Part shown: piece by piece, positions 2,208 through 63,585 of the stretch
Position numbering within the stretch: the first letter of the stretch is position 1
Layout: the number at the start of each line of letters is the position of its first letter
Assembly (NCBI RefSeq): GCF_964213995.1
Contig: NC_135822.1
Location: forward strand, 68,324,001-68,388,000
DNA from: Mustelus asterias
Taxonomy: Eukaryota
Direction: 5' to 3'
Length of the DNA: 64,000 nucleotides
Notes under the pieces: model-generated
The model's input: only the letters and a program-made list of their open reading frames with translations
Database searches by the model: none
What the model was told of the DNA's origin: nothing
Position numbers and translations under genes: made by a program

Positions 2208-2926
2208 CACAATCAGCCACAAGGCCTTCACCCTCGCAAGAGTCCAGCACATGACTGCTGACGTCGCTGAAGCACCATCACTCGTTTTTCATATCCGTTT
2301 TTCAGTTTTCAATCCCTGCAGTGCAGGAGAGGCCACTCGACCTATGGAATCTGCACTGACTGTTAACCCACTACATCCACCATTCACCTCCCAACTCCGC
2401 ACTTGCTTAAAACTTGTTACGTCTCTAACGTTTGCCCAGTTCTGACAAATGGTGATTGACCTGAAATGTTTGCCGGAAACCTCCGGCCTCACCGGTGGCT
2501 AGTATCCTCCGATGCCGCTGCAGTGAATGGGGTTTTGGCTGAACGCCGGATTCTCCATTCTCGCTGGCTGTGTGTGGGGGGGGGGGGGGGGGGGGGGGGC
2601 AGTGGGAGCGGGGGTGGGGGGGGGTGTGGTGGGGGTGGTGAACGAGATCACCCATTCACTCTGTTTCTCTCTTTACAGATGAAACTTGATCTCCTGAATA
2701 ATTTTCCAGTCCTTCCGTTTTTTCATTTCAGATTGCCGGGTCTTGGTGCTTTTGTTTATGCATTGCTGCTGGACAAAATGGCACTTTTTTCACAGCTCTC
2801 CTACCAATCTGATGACTTGGCCAAAATCTGTGTCAAATTAGGGACAATTTTCTTCTCACTAAGACGGAACCACTCCCAAATTGAAGTTACAGGTAGCAGG
2901 CAGAAGAAAACAGCAACCCTTCTTCA

Positions 2927-3572
2927 GTCTGGGCTGGACGGAGAGTCTGGTCCCAAGGGGTGAGGTCTGGGTTGGATGGAGACAGTCTGGTCCCAAGGGG
3001 TGAGGTCTGGGCTGGACAGAGAGTCTGGTTCCAAGGAATGAGATCAGGGCTGGACAGAGAGTCTAGCCCCAAGGGGTGAGGTTGAGGCTGGACCGAGAGT
3101 TTGATCCCAAGGGGTGAGGTCTGGGCTGGATGGAGACAGTCTGGTCCCAAGGGGTGAGGTCTGGGCTGGATGGAGATAGTCTGGTCCCAAGGGGTGAGGT
3201 CTGGGCTGGGCAGAGAGTCTGGTTCCAAGGAATGAGATCTGGGCTGGACAGAGAGTCTAGCCCCAAGGGGTGAGGTCTGGGCTGGACCGAGAGTTTGATC
3301 TCATGGGGTGAGGTCTGGGCTGGACAGAGAGTCTGGTCTCAAGGGGTGAGGTCTGGGCTGGACCGAGAGTCTGATCCCAAGGAATGAGATCTGGGCTGGA
3401 CAGAGAGTCTGGTCCCAAGGAGTGAGGTCTGGGCTGGACAGAGAGTCTGGTCCCAAGGGGTGAGGTCTGGGCTGGACAGAGAGTCTGGTCCCAAGGGGTG
3501 AGGTCTGGACTGGATGAAGAGTCTGGTTCCAAGGAATGAGATCTGGGCTGGACAGAGAGTCTGATCCCAAGG
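2927..3572. repeat. 38-bp minisatellite, about 17 copies
   Basis: Unit TCTGGGCTGGACAGAGAGTCTGGTCCCAAGGGGTGAGG, with GGAATGAGAT and 39-bp variants. Confidence 0.95.
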
Positions 3573-4329
3573 TGCAGGAGCGGAGTAGGTGAGAGCCAGG
3601 GTTTGATATCTGATTTCCAATCTACAACGCCATCCAGTGTACCAGGAAAATGCAAATAATCAGTCCCGGGTTTTGAATCTTTGTCTGGAGCAGTCAACAG
3701 GGCAAAAGACAACCGGAATGAACCAGAACAGATTCAGCCCAATGGGATCCCTCTGCCATTCAGCCACATCATGGTTGATCTGGACCTCATCAGAAGAACA
3801 GGTGACATTTTGCCACTTTTTGATGAAGTGCCACCTTGGGTGGGAAGACTGGAGGGTAGCTCATCAACCATGTTGCTAGGTTTTCCCCACATATTTTTAA
3901 AAGCTTGGTCATAAATATAGTAATGGGTGGGTCCATGGTATCACACAGCCAGGCAGAGTCTATCAACCATTGGGGTGTTATTTTTAAAGGGCTCCATGAT
4001 GTAAATGAATAAAAACAGAAACTCCCCTCCTACCCACGCGTCCTGACCCTCCCCCACCATGGAACTTTCCCTTCCTGTCCCGCAACGGAACCAGGCCCCC
4101 CACATCGAAACCCCTCACCCCTCCCCACCCACAATTACCTTATGCAACTTCTGCCTCCCACCCTCCAACAGAAACATGCAACATCCCCCAGGGGACACCC
4201 CCCCGACCCTGCTTCCTGACACTTCCCTCAAGAGCATGTGGATGGGAGGGGGCTGAGTAGAAAGGAGGACTCCCTCATAAGCATGCTCCTGGGCATTTGG
4301 CAAGTCGGCCTTTATCAGTTTGTCCACAA

Positions 4330-4575: not shown

Positions 4576-5189
4576 GTTTAATTTGAAATGGTTAAGTTTC
4601 CTTTTTTGACATTCTAATTTAGTTACAGTGCCCCACCATGAGTTGCCATCCCTGTCATTTTGTCTGTTTAATTTATTGATTACTGTTGGATTAAAAGGGA
4701 GTACAAAGAAAGATTCCCTGGGCCTGGCCGAGGTGGCCATTAACAGGTCCAGGTGGTCAAGGGGGTTGTCTGAACCGATCGTCTACCCCTCTCCCGCAGC
4801 TCCACTCGTGACCTGGTGGTGTTGGAGAGGGAGCATGCAATATCCACTGGCATGCTTCAGACCTTCTGTCACCAGAAGGGCATCACAGGGGCCAGAGTGC
4901 ACCATCACATCTGGGATTGACATTCACTAAGTTTACTTTTGACTTTTTATTTTAGTTACAGTGCCCCACGAAGGGCTTTCACCTCTGCTACTTGTGTTCA
5001 ATTTATTGACGAATGACTTATTAGAAGTGTATAAAGAGGGATTGCAGTTGAATGCAGGAGGAGGAATGGGGGTTCATCCAGCCCAGTTTTCTACCTCTCT
5101 TCTGTGGCTACGTTCATGCCTCCCTTTAAGGGAGCGCACTGTGTTCACTAGCCCCCTCTTCAGGCCTTTAAAGATTATTTATTTATTAA

Positions 5190-7990: not shown

Positions 7991-8176
7991 CAATGTCATA
8001 TTTATTGTCTTTTCCTCCTGCCACTATTTCTGCTCCTTTCTTGAAGGTGCTGAACTAGCAGGATGCTGCCATCAAGCCAAAAAGACGGCCGTGATTCTCC
8101 CATCCCGCTGCGCTAATTTTTTAGGAAGTATTCAATGAGTGGCATGACACTAGGAAGTCATGTGGAACAAAGGGAC

Positions 8177-8416
8177 TGATGCACTATCAATCAAGCAAAG
8201 ACTAGTTTGTATGCAAGAACAAATAGGCTTTTATTAGCAAAAGACTTGGAGCACACCCATGCCGATGAACTGGTCCAGCGACTGAGGCAGGGGGTGGGGA
8301 GCAGTCACCTTTATACCTCAACCAGGGGGGGGAGGAGTCCCAGGCAGGGCCAGCAGGGGCATGTCCAGGCATGTCACACACACACACAGGCAATAAGCTA
8401 ATAGTGGTTTACCACA
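8177..8416 (-). mobile_element. Solo LTR related to the Gypsy element at 54470-59239
   Basis: Minus strand reads TGTGGTAAACCA...GTGCATCA, with GGTATAAAGGT and AATAAAAGCCT motifs shared with the full-length LTR. Flanks GGGAC/GGGAG (4/5 TSD). Confidence 0.82.
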
Positions 8417-31630: not shown

Positions 31631-32257
31631 CCTCAGGATTACTTCATTGGCTATTGGTTGTTAAAGGAATCGAATGTCTCTTTTTTCCATTCACGCTGAG
31701 TCTGATCATCTGTACACGGTGAGTCCATTGCTTCACTGTTTACTGGCAGGGAATAACTCACCATGTCAGCTTTCTAACTTCAGGTAACAAGGCAATTAGG
31801 CTGAGGAGGCAAAAGTGGTAGTCTGACTGAGGTGGGCAGAATATTGAAGGAAGTATGAAGGAATAGAAAGGGAATGATTATTTCCTTGAGGAGGGAACTC
31901 CAGCAGAAGGACCATAATCTAAACTTTAGAAGCAGAGCAGAGAAGGATTGCACTCCATCAACAGGCCACAGATGTCAAATCAAATAAGATGTTGAAAAGG
32001 GAAATAGGTAGCCATGTGATAGGTATGAGTGATGTGGAGATGCCGGCTTTGGACTGGGGTAAACACAGTAAGAAGTTTAACAACACCAGGTTAAAGTCCA
32101 ACAGGTTTATTTGGTAGCAAAAGCCACACAAGCTTTTGGAGCTCTTAGCCCCTTCTTCAGGTGAGTGGGAATTCTGTTCACAAACAGAGCTTATAAAGAC
32201 ACAGACTCAATTTACATGAATAATGGTTGGAATGCAAATACTTACAACTAATCAAGT

Positions 32258-32597
32258 ACACGGTACATACTCTTGCAATTCGGCCAACGTTGTCTACCTG
32301 ATACGCTGCAAGAAAGGATGTCCCGAGGCATGGTACATTGGGGAAACTATGCAGACGCTGCGACAACGGATGAATGAACACCGCTCGACAATCACCAGGC
32401 AAGACTGTTCTCTTCCTGTTGGGGAGCACTTCAGCGGTCACGGGCATTCGGCCTCTGATATTCGGGTAAGCGTTCTCCAAGGCGGCCTTCGCGACACACG
32501 ACAGCGCAGAGTCGCTGAGCAGAAACTGATAGCCAAGTTCCGCACACACGAGGACGGCCTCAACCGGGATATTGGGTTCATGTCACACTATTTGTAA
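32258..32597 (+). pseudogene. GIY-YIG endonuclease domain of the Penelope ORF, 5'-truncated
   Basis: NVVYLIRCKKGCPEAWYIGETMQTLRQRMNEH...EQKLIAKF...GLNRD. No RT upstream. Confidence 0.9.
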
Positions 32598-32806
32598 CTC
32601 CCACAGTTGCGTGGACCTGCAGAGTTTCACTGGCTGTCTTGTCTGGAGACAATACACATCTTTTTAGCCTGTCTTGATGCTCTCTCCACTCACATTGTTT
32701 CGTCTCTTAAAGACTTGATTAGTTGTAAGTATTTGCATTCCAACCATTATTCATGTAAATTGAGTCTGTGTCTTTATAAGCTCTGTTTGTGAACAGAATT
32801 CCCACT

Positions 32807-32843
32807 CACCTGAAGAAGGGGCTAAGAGCTCCGAAAGCTTGTG
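32807..32843 (+). ncRNA. Minimal type I hammerhead ribozyme motif
   Basis: CAC CTGAAGA A GGGGC TAAGA GCTCC GAA AGCT T GTG. Confidence 0.75.
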
Positions 32844-33062
32844 TGGCTTTTGCTACCAAATAAACCTGTTGGACTTTAACCTGGTGTTGTTAAACTTCTT
32901 AATAGGTATGAGTGCCAAAGAATATGAAGGGAAATTTTTCAATGGTCATTCTTTCGGTCTGGCACTTGCAACATTATTTTGAGACATTTCAAAAATATTC
33001 ACAGCAATTAAGTAAACCATTCACACTGATCCATGCCAGTGCTTCGGCTCCACATGAGCCTT

Positions 33063-33569: not shown

Positions 33570-33884
33570 AGCTGACATGAGCAGAGGCTGGGCCTTCTGC
33601 CTCCCGCCTCCCAGTGGGAGGAAGCCCCGTCATTGATAGCTGACATGAGCAGAGGCTGGGCCTTCTGCCTCTCAGTGGGAGGAAGCCCCATCGTTGATAG
33701 CTGACATGAGCAGAGGCTGGGCCTTCTGCCTCTCAGTGGGAGGAAGCCCCATCATTGATAGCTGACATGAGCAGAGGCTGGGCCTTCTGCCTCTCAGTGG
33801 GAGGAAGCCCCATCATTGATAGCTGACATGAGCAGAGGCTGGGCCTTCTGCCTCTCAGTGGGAGGAAGCCCCATCGTTGATAGC
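33570..33884. repeat. 61-bp minisatellite, 5 copies
   Basis: Unit AGCTGACATGAGCAGAGGCTGGGCCTTCTGCCTCTCAGTGGGAGGAAGCCCCATCATTGAT. Confidence 0.95.
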
Positions 33885-34358
33885 TCCCAGCCAATATGAT
33901 CAGCTGGTAGCTCCAGCAGTCCCGACAGTACCAGAACTCAGCTGTGTGCACAACCGAGACTGCAAAGAGATCCCAGAAAGAAGAGCAATGGGTCCTGGAC
34001 TAGGATAAGTCCTGGGCTGGAATTTTCTAACCAGTCTCTAATTTTAACCACCTCTTCTGAAAAAGCAATGAAAGGGAAGGGAGCGAGGCTGATCAATATA
34101 CTTCTAAGTTAATTTCAATATTATGAGTGAGCCCGTGATGCAAGCAGAGGTGGGCAAGACCCTAATTTCCACTTTAAGCCATCAAAGTAATTCAAGAAAC
34201 CAGGCCTGCCAAGACCTGGTCTGTTTACACCGCATGCCAATCGGTCCCTTATCATTTCATTCAACACTGGAGGACTGTTGCCAAGAGAGAGACCAGCGGT
34301 CACAAATTAGAGATAGAAGAACCTTTAATTTGTAAAAGTACATTCCTTTCACCCATAT

Positions 34359-53252: not shown

Positions 53253-54469
53253 TAAGGGTATTCAGTTCATTTCTGCCTGGTGGACTTGTGCAAAATTGCT
53301 ACCCATTTATCTACAGAACAACATGCACCATACCATAAAGAAATCCACTGCATGTGGAAGCTCTGGGGAACGCCTAAGAGACCCAATACGATGCTTGTTT
53401 TAAGCATTCATTTAGAACATAGAACAGTACAGCACAGAACAGGCCCTTCGGCCCACGATGTTGTGCCGAGCTTTGACTGAAACCAAGATCAAGCTATCCC
53501 ACTCCCTATCATCCTGGTGTGCTCCATGTGCCTATCCAAGAACCGCTTAAATGTTCCTAAAGTGTCTGACTCCACTATCACTGCAGGCAGTCCATTCCAC
53601 ACCCCAACCACTCTCTGCGTAAAGAACCTACCTCTGATATCCTTCCTATATCTCCCACCATGAACCCTATAGTTATGCCCCCTTGTAATAGCTCCATCCA
53701 CCCGAGGAAATAGTCTTTCAACGTTCACTCTATCTATCCCCTTCATCATTTTATAAACCTCTATTAAGTCTCCCCTCAGCCTCCTCTGCTCCAGAGAGAA
53801 CAGCCCTAGCTCCCTCAACCTTTCCTCATAAGATCTACCCTCCAAACCAGGCAGCATCCTGGTAAATCTCCTCTGCACTCTTTCCAGCGCTTCCACATCC
53901 TTCTTATAGTGAGGTGACCAGAACTGCACACAATATTCCAAATGTGGTCTCACCAAGGTCCTGTACAGTTGCAGCATAACCCCACGGCTCTTAAACTCCA
54001 ACCCCCTGTTAATAAAAGCTAACACACTATAGGCCTTCTTCACAGCTCTATCCACTTGAGTGGCAACCTTTAGAGAACTGTGGATATGGACCCCAAGATC
54101 TCTCTGTTTCTCCACAGTCTTCAGAGCCCTACCTTTGACCTTGTAATCCACATTTAAACTAGTCCTACCAAAATGAATCACCTCACATTTATCAGGGTTA
54201 AACTCCATTTGCCATTTTTCAGCCCAGCTTTGCATCCTATCTATGTCTCTTTGCAGCCTACAACAGCCCTCCACCTCATCCACTACTCCACCAATCTTGG
54301 TGTCATCAGCAAATTTACTGATCCACCCTTCAGCCCCCTCCTCTAAGTCATTAATAAAAATCACAAAGAGCAGAGGACCAAGCACTGATCCCTGTGGCAC
54401 TCCGCTAGCAACCTGCCTCCAGTCCGAAAATTTTCCATTCACCACCACCCTCTGTCTTCAATCAGACAG

Positions 54470-54799
54470 TGTGGTGAGCCATCGTGGGTTCCCACGAGAT
54501 AGTACTGAGCCAGGGTCTGGCCAGTACTACAAGTATGTATATATGTTGCTGCTGGGGTTAGGGATGGGTTGTTCTACTTGTTGCTGTTGGGGTTAGGGTT
54601 GGGCTGTTACACCTTGTATTATAGTTATTGTGGTACATCCCAGTCGGGCTCCGCCTCCTGGGAGAGGTATAAAGGTCTCTGCTCTGTCTGGGACCCCTCA
54701 GTCTGGAATCGTGTATATAATTAGTAGCTTCGTTGTTACAGCAAATAAAAGCCTTTATTTCCTGAGCATCTCAAGCCTCGTGTGTGATAACGCACATCA
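54470..54799 (+). repeat. 5' LTR
   Basis: TATAAA at 54668, TATATAA at 54714, AATAAA at 54744. Confidence 0.96.
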
Positions 54800-54800
54800 A

Positions 54801-54815
54801 TTTTATTTGCTGTAA
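54801..54815 (+). promoter_or_regulatory. Atypical primer-binding site complementary to own LTR
   Basis: TTTTATTTGCTGTAA is the exact reverse complement of 54736-54750. There is no TGG to pair with a tRNA CCA end. Confidence 0.7.
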
Positions 54816-54853
54816 ATAAACTCTCGTCGGAAAAAAAAAACGATATAGAGAGT

Positions 54854-57800
54854 ATGGAGCAGATACTGAAGCCTGAACGCCTTACACTGGATCCACGTGC
54901 GGCGGGCGCTTCTAACACCTTCGACCACTGGTTGAAATGTTTTGAGGACTATCTGGCAGCCTCCGCAGCGGTCACCACAGATGATGACAGACTCCGGGTC
55001 CTCCATGCGAGGGTAAGCGACACTGTCTACCTCGCGATCCGTGCGGCCACCGACTACACAAAGGCCCTCGAGCTTCTTAAGAAGCGTTATATTAAACCGC
55101 CCAATGAAATACATGCTCGTTACCTCTTAGCCACTCGACGACGGCAGTCCGGCGAAACGACGGAGGAATACGCGAACGAGCTCCTACAGCTAGCCAGGGG
55201 CTGTAACTGCAAAGCAGTGTCGGCAGAGCAGAATATGAACGACCTCGCTCGAGATGCGTTTGTGATGGGAGTCGGATCATCATACATCCGACTCAAACTC
55301 CTGGAGAAAGATAATCTTGACCTCACCCAGGCAATAGAACTAGCGGATATGTTGGAGACGGCCTCCAAAAGCCTAGTATTGTATCCTGAAAACCACGTGG
55401 AGACAACGTGGCAGGAGCAGTCACTGATCCCTCCTCGTCCTTCGGGTTCGAAATGCTGCGTGATGGCGTGCTCACACTCGGGCCAGACGACGGCAGCAGC
55501 TCCGGGCGGCCTGCGGTGTTACTTCTGTGGGGGAGCGAAGCATACTCGGCAATGGTGTCCCGCTAAAGCTGTGTTGTGCTCCGCCTGCGGTAAGAAGGGG
55601 CACTATTCGAAAGTGTGCCAATCTAAATCTGCTTCTCGGAGCAGCAGTGCGGCCTGCGATTCCTCGGAGCCCGGTTCTTCGTCGTCGGCATCGTCGAGGG
55701 TTTCGTCCACGTGCGAGGCCAGGACGACGCCATTACGGTCGACGGACTCGGAGAGGTGTGACCACCAGGGGTCGCTGAGTTTGGTGCCATCACCCACGTG
55801 CGACCTATGGGAGCGGCCATGTTGGTCGGCACCCACCGCGAACGACCAGCAGGGGTCATCCTCGTCAATCTCAGCCGCCTGCAGTGGCGCTCATGAACCA
55901 ACGGTGGCGTCGATCATCCTGGACCAGGCCAAGCCTCATAGACTTGACAAGTCTATGATGGACATTCAGGTAAACGACCACTTGATTTATTGTCTGTTTG
56001 ACAGCGGGAGCACTGAGAGTTTTATCCACCCAGACGCTGTGAAGCGGTGTGGACTCCGGATTCAACCTGTCAAACAGACAATTTCTATGGCATCAAGGTC
56101 CCGGTCTGTCACCGTGCTAGGGAGTTGCTTGGTAACTTTAACGGTGCAAGGCACAGTTTACGAGCGTTTCAAGCTCCTGGTGTTGCCGCACCTTTGCGCG
56201 CCAATACTTCTCGGACTAAACCTCATGGTCCACTTGAGGAGTGTAACCCTACAGTACGGTGGGCCACTCCCTTCGCTTTCAGTGGGAGAACAGCAGCCAC
56301 CAAATTGCCCAACGCGCCCCGCCTGTAGCCATTCGACGCTGAAGATTACCACATCCTCCCTGTTCCAGAATCTTGTGCCAGGCTGCAAGCCCATTGTGAC
56401 TAAGAGTAGGCGTTACAGCGCTGAGGATCGGATCTTCATTCAATCTGAAGTTCAGCGGCTCCTCAAGGAAAGGATCATACAACCTAGCGCTAGTCCGTGG
56501 AGAGCGCAGGTCGTGGTGGTCAAGAGTGGGAACAAACCCCGGATGGTCATTGACTATAGTCAGACCGTTAATAGATACACGCAGCTGGATGCGTATCCCC
56601 TCCCGCGCATATCTGACATGGTCAATCAGATTGCGCAGTACCGGGTGTTCTCCACCATAGACCTCAAGTCTGCCTACCACCAACTCCCCATTCGCCCAGA
56701 GGACCGACAATACACGGCTTTTGAGGCGGATGGTCGCTTGTATCATTTTCTCAGGGTTCCCTTTGGTGTCACCAATGGGGTCTCGGTCTCCCAGCGTGCT
56801 ATGGACCGAATGGTGGACCAGAACGGGCTGCGGGCTACCTTCCCGTACCAGGATAACGTCACCATCTGCGGCTATGACCAGCAGGACCATGACACAAATC
56901 TCCTGAATTTCCTACGCACTGCATCTCGCCTGAACCTGACCTACAACAGGGAGAAGTGTGTGTTTCGTACGCGCCGTTTAGCCATCCTCAGATACGTGGT
57001 GGAAAACGGGGTCATTGGCCCTGATCCAGATCGTATGCGTCCCCTCTTTGAACTTCCCCTGCCCACTAGTGCAAAAGCACTGAGAAGATGCTTAGGCTTC
57101 TCCTCTTATTATGCACAGTGGGTTCCCAATTACGCGGACAAAGCCCGTCCGCTCATCAAGTCCACTTCTCTTCCCCTAACACCAGAGGCCCGATTGGCCT
57201 TTGATAAACTAAAAGCCGACATCGCGAAAGCTACGATGCACGCTGTTGATGAGTCCATCCCCTTTCAGGTGGAGAGCGATGCATCTGATTTCGCCCTGGC
57301 CGCCAAACTTAACCAGGCGGGCAGGCCCGTCGCCTTTTTTTCCCGCACCCTCCAAGGCCCCGAAATCCGGCATTCAGCGGTGGAAAAGGAGGCCCAGGCC
57401 ATTGTGGAGGCCGTCAGGCACTGGCGCCATTACTTGGCGGGAAAACGGTTCACCCTGATCACGGACCAGCGGTCCGTGGCGTTCATGTTTAATAACACGC
57501 TGAGGGGCAAGATCAAGAACGACAAGATCTTGCGGTGGAGAATTGAACTCTCCACCTATAACTATGACATCATGTATCGTCCAGGGAAACTCAATGAGCC
57601 CTCGGATGCCCTCTCGCGTGGAACATGCGTCAGTATACAGGAGGACCGTTTGCAGGCTCTCCATAATGACCTATGCCATCCTGGGGTCACTCGGCTCTAC
57701 CACTTTATAAAAGCCCGCAATTTGCCCTACTCGGTGGAGGATGTCAGGTCCATAACAAGAAGCTGTCGGGTATGCGCGGAATGCAAACCTCACTTTTACC

Positions 57801-58405
57801 GACCTGACCGGGCACAATTAGTCAAGGCCACTCGTCCCTTCGAAAGACTGAGTGTCGATTTTAAGGGCCCCCTTCCCTCAACAGATCGGAATGTGTACTT
57901 CCTCAACATCATTGATGAGTACTCAAGATTCCCTTTTGTTATTCCCTGCTCTGATACATCCGCTGCCACGGTTATCAAGGCATTCCGTGATCTTTTTAAC
58001 CTGTTCGGGTACCCCAGCTATATTCACAGCGACAGGGGCTCGTCGTTCATGAGCGATGACTTGAGGCAATACCTGCTCTCATACGGGATTGCCTCTAGTA
58101 GAACCACGAGCTACAACCCTCGGGGTAACGGACAGGTGGAACGTGAGAATGCTACAGTCTGGAAGGCTGTCTTACTGGTGTTGAAGTCAAAAAGCCTTCC
58201 AGTCTCCCGTTGGCAAGAGGTGCTCCCTGATGCGCTCCATTCCATACGCTCACTCCTGTGTACGGCAACCAACGCTACTCCCCATGAGAGGCTGTTTTCA
58301 TTCCCTCGGAAGTCTTCCTCTGGGACCTCATTACCGTCTTGGTTGACGTACTCAGGACCTATCCTCCTGCGGCGACATGTAAGGGCCCGCAAGTCCGGCC
58401 GGTGA
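54854..58405 (+). CDS. Gag-Pol polyprotein (two CCHC knuckles, protease, RT, RNase H, integrase)
   Basis: CYFCGGAKHTRQWC and CSACGKKGHYSKVC; LFDSGS; IDLKSAYHQ..VPFGVTNG..YQDN; ESDASD; H-x4-H..CxxC; VDFKGP, SDRG, QVER. Apparent 1-nt deletion near 58398. Confidence 0.95.
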   Translation: MEQILKPERLTLDPRAAGASNTFDHWLKCFEDYLAASAAVTTDDDRLRVLHARVSDTVYLAIRAATDYTKALELLKKRYIKPPNEIHARYLLATRRRQSGETTEEYANELLQLARGCNCKAVSAEQNMNDLARDAFVMGVGSSYIRLKLLEKDNLDLTQAIELADMLETASKSLVLYPENHVETTWQEQSLIPPRPSGSKCCVMACSHSGQTTAAAPGGLRCYFCGGAKHTRQWCPAKAVLCSACGKKGHYSKVCQSKSASRSSSAACDSSEPGSSSSASSRVSSTCEARTTPLRSTDSERCDHQGSLSLVPSPTCDLWERPCWSAPTANDQQGSSSSISAACSGAHEPTVASIILDQAKPHRLDKSMMDIQVNDHLIYCLFDSGSTESFIHPDAVKRCGLRIQPVKQTISMASRSRSVTVLGSCLVTLTVQGTVYERFKLLVLPHLCAPILLGLNLMVHLRSVTLQYGGPLPSLSVGEQQPPNCPTRPACSHSTLKITTSSLFQNLVPGCKPIVTKSRRYSAEDRIFIQSEVQRLLKERIIQPSASPWRAQVVVVKSGNKPRMVIDYSQTVNRYTQLDAYPLPRISDMVNQIAQYRVFSTIDLKSAYHQLPIRPEDRQYTAFEADGRLYHFLRVPFGVTNGVSVSQRAMDRMVDQNGLRATFPYQDNVTICGYDQQDHDTNLLNFLRTASRLNLTYNREKCVFRTRRLAILRYVVENGVIGPDPDRMRPLFELPLPTSAKALRRCLGFSSYYAQWVPNYADKARPLIKSTSLPLTPEARLAFDKLKADIAKATMHAVDESIPFQVESDASDFALAAKLNQAGRPVAFFSRTLQGPEIRHSAVEKEAQAIVEAVRHWRHYLAGKRFTLITDQRSVAFMFNNTLRGKIKNDKILRWRIELSTYNYDIMYRPGKLNEPSDALSRGTCVSIQEDRLQALHNDLCHPGVTRLYHFIKARNLPYSVEDVRSITRSCRVCAECKPHFYRPDRAQLVKATRPFERLSVDFKGPLPSTDRNVYFLNIIDEYSRFPFVIPCSDTSAATVIKAFRDLFNLFGYPSYIHSDRGSSFMSDDLRQYLLSYGIASSRTTSYNPRGNGQVERENATVWKAVLLVLKSKSLPVSRWQEVLPDALHSIRSLLCTATNATPHERLFSFPRKSSSGTSLPSWLTYSGPILLRRHVRARKSGR

Positions 58406-58845
58406 TCGAACAGGTCCATCTCCTCCACGCCAACCCTCAGTATGCCTATGTGGCATACCCTGACGGGCGAGAGGACACGGTCTCGATCCGAGACCTGGCA
58501 CCAGCAGGGGACGTAGAAACCCCTGTCGCTCCCATACCCCCTGTTACAAACCCCATAACTCTTGTTTCCCCTCCGGACACGGCGCGGGCAGCATCGGGAC
58601 CATTACTTAACCCTTTTACTCCCGTGTACAGCTTGCCTGAGTCCAGAGGATGGTCGCCACTTCAGGGCGTGTCGGAACTCCATGGATTACCATCACCTCA
58701 GGGTCAACCGGCCCGTGAGACTGTGGAGGAACAGTTGGACATCGCCTCTGGGAGAACGCCACCGCGAGTGCCTACTCCGGTGTCATCGCCGGTATTGAGG
58801 AGGTCACAACGACGGTGCGGTCCCCCTGACCGTCTGAACTTATAG
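58399..58845 (+). pseudogene. Frameshifted integrase C-terminal tail
   Basis: PVIEQVHLLHANPQYAYVAYPDGREDTVSIRDLAP...LRRSQRRCGPPDRLNL, ending just before the PPT. Confidence 0.85.
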
Positions 58846-58895
58846 ACTGATGACAAATTATTCTGTTTTTTTGTACCCCGCCGGCCTTTGTCTTC

Positions 58896-58909
58896 AAAGG
58901 AGGGGTGAA
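58896..58909 (+). promoter_or_regulatory. Polypurine tract
   Basis: AAAGGAGGGGTGAA abutting the 3' LTR. Confidence 0.88.
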
Positions 58910-59239
58910 TGTGGTGAACCATCGTTGGTTCCCACTAGATAGTACTGAGCCAGGGTCTGGCCAGTACTACAAGTATGTATATATGTTGCTGTTGGGATTA
59001 GGGATGGGTTGTTCTACTTGTTGCTGTTGGGGTTAGGGTTGGGCTGTTACACCTTGTATTATAGTTATTGTGGTACATCCCAGTCGGGCTCCGCCTCCTG
59101 GGAGAGGTATAAAGGTCTCTGCTCTGTCTGGGACCCCTCAGTCTGGGATCGTGTATATAATTAGTAGCTTCGTTGTTACAGCAAATAAAAGCCTTTATTT
59201 CCTGAGCATCTCAAGCCTCGTGTGTGATAACGCGCATCA
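58910..59239 (+). repeat. 3' LTR
   Basis: 323/330 identical to the 5' LTR by manual comparison. Confidence 0.96.
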
Positions 59240-59794
59240 GACAGCCAGTTACCTATCCAATCGGCCAACTTTCCCTCTATCCCACACCTCCTTACTTTCA
59301 TCATAAGCCGACCATGGGAGACTCCACCAATTACATAGAATTCAAATTCTATCAAAGGGACCTTTACTTAAGTGCACAAAAATTACTCCAGTAGAAGTCA
59401 ACACCAATGCCAAAAGATTGGGAAAAGGCAAGGTCACCTTTGCTAATCCTTTTGTTGTAACTTGCATCTTTGGGCAGAACACCCTCACCCTGGGAAATGA
59501 CTTATATATTTTCAAAGCTGCTATTAAATATCCTGTCACCAGCAGACGGTCAGGTATAGTTCAGAGTTCCTGTTTTCTCAGTGTCTGAGGCTCCAAGGTT
59601 TAAAGCAGCTTTATTGCTTTCTGAAGGGGAAGATGATAATCAGTTGTAATATCAGATTGTCTGAATTTTTAACCTGATCTGGACCAGGAGTCTGAATTTC
59701 ATGAAATATTGTCCAGCATATGTGAAAGTCAATGACTTCAAGGATTGTCTGCCTCAGATTTACACATGTCTTTTTGTTGAAGACTAAAGGAATG

Positions 59795-61860: not shown

Positions 61861-62765
61861 TCAATCATGTTAATGATAATGTAAGCATGGCATCAGGGTC
61901 AAATAACCAAGAGGTTCTAAGAGAGGGCGGCACAGAAGAGTCTGTGGCCAGATAATATGTCCTGACCATGATGCCTTTGTAAATAGTGTAAATATATGGT
62001 TTAAGAAAATACTGACCGTCTCTAAGTCATCACCGCCACTTCCTGAGTAAAGCGGATTTTTCCCGAATTCCCCTTTGGATTTATCAATCACTCCTTAAAT
62101 TTACAATTTCTCGTCCTGGACTCCCCGATAGATTTTTTTTTTCTTATGAAACCATTTCATTGCTTCACGGAAATAGCACAAGGAGGAATATTTTCTCATG
62201 TTAAAACTGTGAAGTGGTGAGATTTTCCAATGAGTGAGGACAGTTGAGCAGTTATTCCACTGTAATACGTACAGACAGCGTTTAGCAAAGGGGAATGTTT
62301 ATTCCACTTTTGGAATTTGTTGGGTTTAAGATTTTGTAGGCAGATGTCATCACGGAATCATAATCAGTTCACGTGTGAAGGGAAGTAGATGATACCACAG
62401 CAAGTGAAGCACAGTGAAATTGTGTTAACTGAGCTGCTGTGATTTCTGCTTTTTGTCCCTTTCTTGTTGCAAGCAATAGCAGGTCCTGCACAGATTGTGA
62501 TATTACAATAGCATGGAAATGTTAATGGTCTTGGAAGGAAACTTAACCCAGCAGGCAGCGAACTCTCCAGACGAATTGATGGAAATTCCAGCACATCTCT
62601 CAACATCCTCAGAATGGGTGCAATCTCAGCCAGATTGTTTCTTCCAGTTGGACTGGTGTTGTGCTGTTAATCTACATTCAGGAAACACTGGGTAAGGTAT
62701 ATGACAGTAAGAAGTTTAACAACACCAGGTTAAAGTCCAACAGGTTTATTTGGTAGCAAAAGCCA

Positions 62766-62802
62766 CACAAGCTTTCGGAGCTCTAAGCCCCTTCTTCAGG
62801 TG
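62766..62802 (-). ncRNA. Minimal hammerhead ribozyme motif
   Basis: Minus strand: CAC CTGAAGA A GGGGC TTAGA GCTCC GAA AGCT T GTG. Confidence 0.75.
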
Positions 62803-63212
62803 AGTGGGAATTCTGTTCACAAACAGAACTTATAAAGACACAGACTCAATTTACATGAATAATGGTTGGAATGCGAATACTTACAACTAATCCAGTCTTT
62901 AAGAAACAAAACAATGGGAGTGGAGAGAGCATCAAGACAGGCTAAAAAGATATGTATTGTCTCCAGACAAGACAGCCAGTGAAACTCTGCAGGTCCACGC
63001 AACTGTGGGAGTTACAAATAGTGTGACATAAACCCAATAACCCAATATCTGGAGACAATACATATCTTTTTAGCCTGTCTTGATGCTCTCTCCACTCCCA
63101 TTGTTTTGTTTCTTAAAGACTGGATTAGTTGTAAGTATTCGCATTCCAACCATTATTCATGTAAATTGAGTCTGTGTCTTTATAAGTTCTGTTTGTGAAC
63201 AGAATTCCCACT

Positions 63213-63249
63213 CACCTGAAGAAGGGGCTTAGAGCCTCGAAAGCTTGTG
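63213..63249 (+). ncRNA. Minimal hammerhead ribozyme motif
   Basis: CAC CTGAAGA A GGGGC TTAGA GCCTC GAA AGCT T GTG. Confidence 0.72.
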
Positions 63250-63585
63250 TGGCTTTTGCTACCAAATAAACCTGTTGGACTTTAACCTGGTGTTGTTAAA
63301 CTTCTTACTGTGTTTACCCCAGTCCAACGCCGGCATCTCCACATCATAAGGTATATGAGACATTAACAAAACTTGGAAGCCAAGGCATCACCTGTGAAAA
63401 GCGAAAATCAACCTTACTGACTTCGTGGCCAAGAATTGTAATCGCACCATTCTCATTTTTCATCCATGAAACAAAATCCATTCTGGCAGGTGAGCTCTGT
63501 GTGTTGCAGGCGGCATGGTGGCACATTTGATTAGTATCATATATTGTTGGTATGAAATAGAAGATATATATATCTAATGGGTGGA

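Follow-up and report, generated by a model that had tools for sequence, protein, structure and literature searches.

The locus analyzed here raises the question of how a retrotransposon without the TGG of a tRNA primer-binding site behind its 5′ LTR begins reverse transcription. It lies in a 64,000-nt stretch of DNA from Mustelus asterias (contig NC_135822.1, positions 68,324,001–68,388,000 of the forward strand), hereafter the window, whose own numbering is used throughout. A young, full-length Ty3/Gypsy element occupies positions 54470–59239, with all of its features on the plus strand. It is flanked by a 5-bp target-site duplication, GACAG (54465–54469 and 59240–59244), and embedded in an older CR1 LINE; read by eye, the LINE is interrupted after 53489–54457 and resumes from 59245, behind the duplication. 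The 5′ LTR (54470–54799; 330 bases, TG…CA) differs from the 3′ LTR (58910–59239) by 7 mismatches, and a polypurine tract with a terminal AA (58896–58909) precedes the latter. The gag-pol frame (54854–58405) comprises Gag, protease, RT, RNase H, and integrase and is broken near its end in this copy, the C-terminal part of the integrase being found in a different frame (58288–58845). Elsewhere, the window contains long near-perfect inverted repeats of one related repeat family (62704–63311, 264 bases, 80 apart; 32030–32901, 189 bases, 455 apart) and tandem arrays at 2903–3594 and 33599–33903 with periods of 38 and 61 bases.

Complementarity between the LTR and the primer-binding position

An earlier note on this DNA had described the bases at 54801–54815, the primer-binding-site position (the site), as an exact reverse complement of bases 54736–54750 of the element's own LTR (the arm). 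Direct inspection of the sequence agrees with this at 15 of 15 positions, with a single spacer base (54800) between the LTR-terminal CA and the complement and with TGG missing after the 5′ LTR. The accompanying details are likewise correct: AATAAA lies within the arm (54744–54749), a TATATAA box starts at 54714, 22 bases ahead of it, and the arm's other copy, within the 3′ LTR (59176–59190), is followed by no complement. Within the window, the 15-mer is confined to the two LTRs and the site, with no further occurrence at one or two mismatches. The longest comparable complement reached at most 11 bases in 20,000 dinucleotide-shuffled LTRs and at most 13 bases at ~63,000 other window positions. 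The predicted fold of 54700–54860 includes the arm/site helix (z −2.9; 3 of 200 shuffles equally stable). Run X15 shows one difference within the arm and has no cover over the primer-site portion.

A solo LTR of a sister family (8177–8416, minus strand; arm at 8229–8243) provides an out-of-sample test. The arm sequence quoted for it in the earlier note is correct, and full-length members of that family had been predicted to carry a site complementary to it. Four contig runs mapped on 8120–8290. The three contigs of run X5 exit the LTR end with letters that agree with the prediction at the spacer and at the initial 13 of 15 bases; X1 and X6 gave mixed, uninformative junctions (agreement 0.39 and 0.48) and X8 gave nothing. 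A variant at 8236, within the sister arm, is common (unphased).

Covariation of arm and site in related families

A protein alignment (n = 38) was used to find 89 related loci, 80 of them from metagenomes (the best 80 of at least 341 confirmed) and 9 from genome bins. The Gag start was matched in 43 loci, and 39 had sufficient upstream DNA (L013, L043, L076, and L086 were excluded for short upstream DNA). Our scan, blind to LTR ends, searched around the Gag start for the perfect inverted repeat of greatest length. It found a perfect stem of at least 13 bases in 33 of the 39 testable relatives, drawn from those best 80 of at least 341 metagenome loci and the 9 bin loci; the same scan reached this length at 8 of 400 random places. 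In stem-bearing relatives, the right arm always begins just past the terminal CA, and the left arm lies 24–68 bases upstream. Six of the scanned relatives had fewer than 13 perfect pairs: L005, L056, and L084 show the stem in register with one or two mismatches, L019 and L065 are decayed copies of stem-bearing families, and no stem was seen by the scan in L035. Eight more loci without a clear Gag start yielded a stem in three cases (L042, 11 pairs; L053, 14; L070, 15), and a hard minimum of 13 bases was abandoned on account of the 11-base stem of L042.

Several loci call for comment. The listing of two-LTR elements omits L031, L042, L067, L081, and L087 (nested, circular, or microsatellite repeats), of which L067, L081, and L087 came back in through the Gag-anchored scan; the row given as the 3′ arm of L087 was disregarded, as it is not a real LTR. 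L019 and L031 belong to the L006 family and show long insertions or an inverted neighbour, probably the result of nested insertion. The contigs that carry the retrotransposons L081–L089 belong to genomes labelled bacterial MAGs, which probably reflects host contamination of these bins, with animal contigs in mixed samples. Scans of viral contigs returned no relatives.

To count pairs, the register was set one base past the terminal CA, and positions 1–13 were scored in 36 anchored elements (L019, L026, L035, and L065 were unanchored). These comprise 462 Watson–Crick pairs, 6 mismatches, and no G·U pair, numbers that overstate independence owing to shared ancestry and to the origin of many loci from few assemblies; TGG at the LTR end occurs in 0 of the 36. 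Among 22 family representatives (19 clusters by Gag DNA, one of them split in four), 285 of 286 core pairs at positions 1–13 are Watson–Crick and none is G·U, although the scan sought perfect stems and was thus biased against G·U, and the neighbouring stem, in which 14 of 94 pairs are G·U, was chosen with G·U allowed. The covariation between site and LTR that the earlier note proposed to look for in relatives is thereby found. When arms were permuted among families (20,000 trials), the mean was 183 pairs and the maximum 219, compared with the 285 observed. The representatives carry 21 different 13-mers, with two to four pair types at each of positions 5–13, and the complement to the own LTR spans 13–19 bases, that to other families mostly 4–6; cross-family matches above 11 were found only between two close kin. 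Pairing declines at positions 14–16 and reaches background level by 17–20.

Individual copies show the same behaviour on a smaller scale. Compared with six copies that are 96–99% identical to it, L009 carries a compensated double change (one event), and L044 keeps perfect pairing through a compensated change in its A-run. In L008, an identical arm mismatch is present in both LTRs (4923–4935 and the 3′ LTR) while the primer site is unaltered, which fits, as expected, an error during the copying that made the insertion. By eye, the complement seems to run on past a one-base T-run difference at the 5′ edges of the arms of L002, L067, and L073, possibly a result of slippage.

Judged by this covariation, the complement is a trait of the lineage, fixed in register and co-changing across ~20 families. 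RT identity across stem-bearing loci ranges from 47 to 100%, and the trait is scattered over the whole RT tree, which was built without outside references. Tree neighbours of stem-bearing loci include proteins from an anemone, a coral, a damselfly, a spider, nematodes, flatworms, a sea slug, and a sea cucumber. Rays and catsharks supply the nearest named homologues (73–85% RT identity), and the hosts given for homologues overall include sharks and rays, cnidarians, insects, spiders, nematodes, flatworms, molluscs, and echinoderms.

Proposed self-priming and its alternatives

Where minus-strand synthesis starts determines the 3′ end of an LTR, so the primer must anneal within 1–2 bases of the terminal CA. 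The first ATG follows the LTR at no more than 20 bases in 7 of the 22 families, and an alternative primer site would not fit there. The one sequence complementary to the site is the element's own arm, and it is very probable that a fragment of the element's RNA serves as its primer for reverse transcription. The proposal of the earlier note that self-priming extends beyond the chromodomain-bearing group is well supported, if indirectly, by the covariation in ~20 families and by the solo-LTR prediction.

If this reading is correct, the arm would fold onto the primer-site position in the full-length RNA, and the element's own RNase H, whose acidic residues do not vary among the 38 proteins aligned, would, by analogy with Tf1, cut at or within one base of the 3′ end of the arm, just before RCCT. 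The freed 3′ end would then prime a minus-strand strong-stop DNA of ~50 bases, which would jump via the 10–30 bases that separate the cut from the poly(A) site. More tentatively, the primer may be copied to restore the site, as happens in retroviruses, and this would explain the strict Watson–Crick co-change without G·U. Ty1 and Ty3 are reported not to inherit the site from their primer (PMC5371799), so that this copying step is put forward as hypothetical.

The RCCT motif directly 3′ of the arm (54751–54754; each column kept in 19–21 of 22 families) is a candidate cleavage-site context and is often paired with a downstream AGGY in a short hairpin. A stem of at least four pairs stands beside the duplex in 19 of 22 families and one of two pairs in the window element, although three to four pairs can arise by chance. 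The RCCT/AGGY hairpin would form a three-way junction at the predicted cut, a weak one in the window element. In the self-primed Tf1/sushi chromoviruses, an extra stem is said to lie beside the primer duplex.

According to the earlier note, a transcription start near 54736 would support self-priming; the note also cited a TATATAA box. That box (54714–54720) is present but missing in the sister LTR, and a conserved pair of elements points elsewhere. A TATA box at 54668–54675, common to the sister solo LTR, is followed after 32 bases by an initiator-like motif at 54698–54704 with its A at 54700, the predicted start site; TATAAAGG and the initiator recur at this spacing in both LTR families of the window and point to 54700, 36 bases before the arm (for the initiator motif TCAKTY, see PMC3601003). 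Relatives show no TATA box or initiator at a fixed distance upstream of the arm; 3 of 22 have TATAWA at up to 120 bases. A start at the arm is in turn favoured by the initiator-like A at arm position 11 (17 of 22) and G at position 10 (20 of 22), by the 11-base stem of L042, and by a duplex length that never exceeds 19. Given the conserved TATA–initiator pair, the primer may lie within R and not at the cap as in Tf1; we would put an arm at the cap and an arm ~36 bases within R at about even odds.

Self-priming by the 5′ arm has to be weighed against other sources of the primer and other uses of the duplex. The 3′-end copy of the arm, on the same or a co-packaged RNA, might pair with the site and prime from there, circularising the genome. 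Because the arm is upstream of the predicted poly(A) site, it would be within the RNA 3′ end for any start site, and the primer site of Ty3 is reported to be split across both RNA ends (PMC5371799). We nevertheless give this route little credence: a cut there would remove the repeat required for the first jump from that RNA, and the 5′ arm, which is predicted to pair with the site by folding back, is just 24–80 bases away.

Another use of the duplex would be to conceal the poly(A) signal of the 5′ LTR. A canonical AATAAA or ATTAAA is found inside the arm in 14 of 22 representatives, the other eight having variants or none; in L002, L003, and L085, the hexamer lies outside the duplex, in L002 and L085 as an unmasked AATAAA downstream. 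For the window element, the predicted unpaired probability of AATAAA is 0.06 in the 5′ context versus 0.22 in the 3′ context, and in each two-LTR element whose arms are both readable, the last 7 bases of the arm are predicted to be less accessible in the 5′ than in the 3′ context. The suggestion that the duplex hides AATAAA in the 5′ LTR only is consistent with this lower accessibility, but a weak local hairpin (54743–54760) is predicted to pair AATAAA in both LTR copies and would hide the 3′ copy too (0.22). Likewise, the idea of one hairpin that both primes and masks agrees with the hexamer in 14 of 22 arms but not with L044, which pairs without it, nor with the unmasked AATAAA of L002 and L085. 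As pairing persists without the hexamer, the poly(A) signal is not what stays constant across families. In roughly two thirds of the families, masking of the 5′ signal is a plausible side effect; it is not the conserved function, and we consider it rather unlikely to matter. In HIV-1, the poly(A) hairpin hides AAUAAA of the 5′ repeat in a stem that is local and present at both ends of a tRNA-primed genome; here, the partner strand is the primer-binding position.

It could still be argued that hiding the 5′ signal is all that the duplex does and that priming occurs by other means, given that the hexamer ends the arm in 14 of 22 families and that all readable two-LTR elements have a predictedly less accessible arm end in the 5′ context. 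This we consider highly improbable, since 8 of 22 families keep the pairing without the hexamer and the compensated change of L044 falls in the A-run. Moreover, a masking hairpin would require neither the one-base register at the LTR end nor the exclusion of G·U, which the neighbouring stem uses freely (14/94), and the element would be left with no primer site.

A tRNA half, a tRNA fragment, or another host RNA priming in trans, with the LTR arm merely similar to it, is barely credible. Half-tRNA priming is known for Copia elements (PMC6317226), and the site has a few conserved columns (C at position 10 in 20/22), but the 21 distinct 13-mers of the 22 families each fit their own LTR, and a conserved host RNA cannot follow them; in addition, TGG is missing, and Rfam gave no relevant match over 54400–55000. 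Chance or an assembly artefact as the source of the complement has a practically negligible probability and was rejected on the shuffle controls and the covariation across families: some relatives are collapsed, circularly permuted contigs, but two LTRs with exact 5-bp target duplications are present in the window element and in 11 of 13 checked elements, and LTR shuffles, arm permutations, and random-place controls all contradict it.

Relation to known self-priming elements and Gypsy lineages

Tf1 is an established case of priming without a tRNA, and its kin are assumed to share this mode, which raises the question of whether the present element belongs among the chromoviruses. By its domains, it is not a chromovirus. 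As had been claimed, there is no chromodomain; no Pfam chromo family was found in the C-terminal frame or in any of the 38 aligned proteins. The GPY/F motif, which bears on chromovirus assignment, is absent from the last 200 residues of 85 long homologues. The two CCHC knuckles noted in Gag are present at residues 243–256 and 263–276 (55517–55618) and recur in 74 of the 85 long homologues. They fit the description of this Gag as Mag-like, and we take the Gag and RT motifs of the element to resemble those of Mag.

In Tf1, the transcript's initial 11 bases are reported to pair as the primer, with RNase H cutting between bases 11 and 12 (PMC7175516). Tf1 and Tf2 of Schizosaccharomyces pombe, Tj1 of S. 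japonicus, and Tf1/sushi elements are described as lacking a tRNA site and as having a primer-binding position complementary to their own 5′ LTR, and the Tf1 primer as a product of RNase H cleavage (PMC7175516, PMC4600332, PMC5341516). The duplex of Tf1 comprises 11 bases, compared with 13–19 here (11 in L042). Unlike Tf1/sushi, the present lineage has no chromodomain (0/38) and two CCHC knuckles (74/85), where chromoviruses usually have one (PMC2577118). Unlike Tf1, its arm mostly holds the poly(A) signal and may be within R, and it is known from sequence alone. A published criterion describes a self-primer as at least 10 bases complementary to the own LTR and situated 0–5 bases after the 5′ LTR (PMC6317226); the complement here exceeds that length, with 15 bases in the window element and 13–19 in the 22 representatives. 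From a similar complement, self-priming has been predicted for the plant Copia TAR lineage (Houba, Osr-1) and for Tcn1 chromoviruses (PMC6317226), which belong to another superfamily or clade and to plant hosts. An origin outside the chromoviruses therefore has a precedent, and the trait would have arisen more than once.

The Mag lineage (A, B, and C clades) shares with the element two CCHC arrays (PMC2577118), a single gag-pol frame, and a broad animal range (PMC6238403). It differs in the RT motif (56846–56857 in the window element), which here is mostly YxDN: among homologues P0001–P0239, YxDN or FxDN is found in 173 of 239 and DD in 61. An Asn-ending motif may mark the lineage; stem-bearing elements occur with both Asn-ending and DD forms, and the motif is thus not tied to self-priming. 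In the text consulted of three surveys (PMC6238403, PMC8556966, PMC2996953), the term PBS occurs 0 times and self-priming goes unmentioned. Two other clades were rejected. CsRN1 elements are reported with a tRNA-Trp site, a CHCC Gag motif, and a 4-bp target duplication (PMC2582038), all of which are missing here, and only the LTR start TGTGGYG fits. The Saci2/lennie clade is described with 4-bp duplications and tRNA primer sites (PMC12471100), compared with 5-bp duplications in 11 of 13 elements and no tRNA primer site here. Accessions of our tapeworm homologues do not appear in the available supplement tables of PMC12471100, and searches of a protein atlas and of solved structures did not yield a clade name.

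In the literature searched, we found no paper on self-priming in a non-chromovirus animal Gypsy lineage, and an earlier mention in Repbase, GyDB, or subscription journals is possible. In its most far-reaching form, the model would be that of an animal-wide, non-chromovirus lineage whose primer is cut from inside a capped RNA at the poly(A)-signal segment, whose duplex both primes and silences the 5′ signal, whose site is rewritten in each cycle and so co-evolves with the arm, and which escapes silencing by tRNA fragments; we offer this combination tentatively and regard it as unlikely to hold as a whole. If self-priming itself is correct, a second and very widespread Gypsy lineage of animals would make tRNA-free priming a common strategy that has arisen again. 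Elements of this kind would be missed or mislabelled by annotation that requires a tRNA match, and, being self-primed, they would presumably be beyond the reach of 3′ tRNA fragments. The lineage would then be a natural system in which to test how a reverse transcriptase generates its own primer and by what means poly(A) signals at the 5′ end are suppressed.
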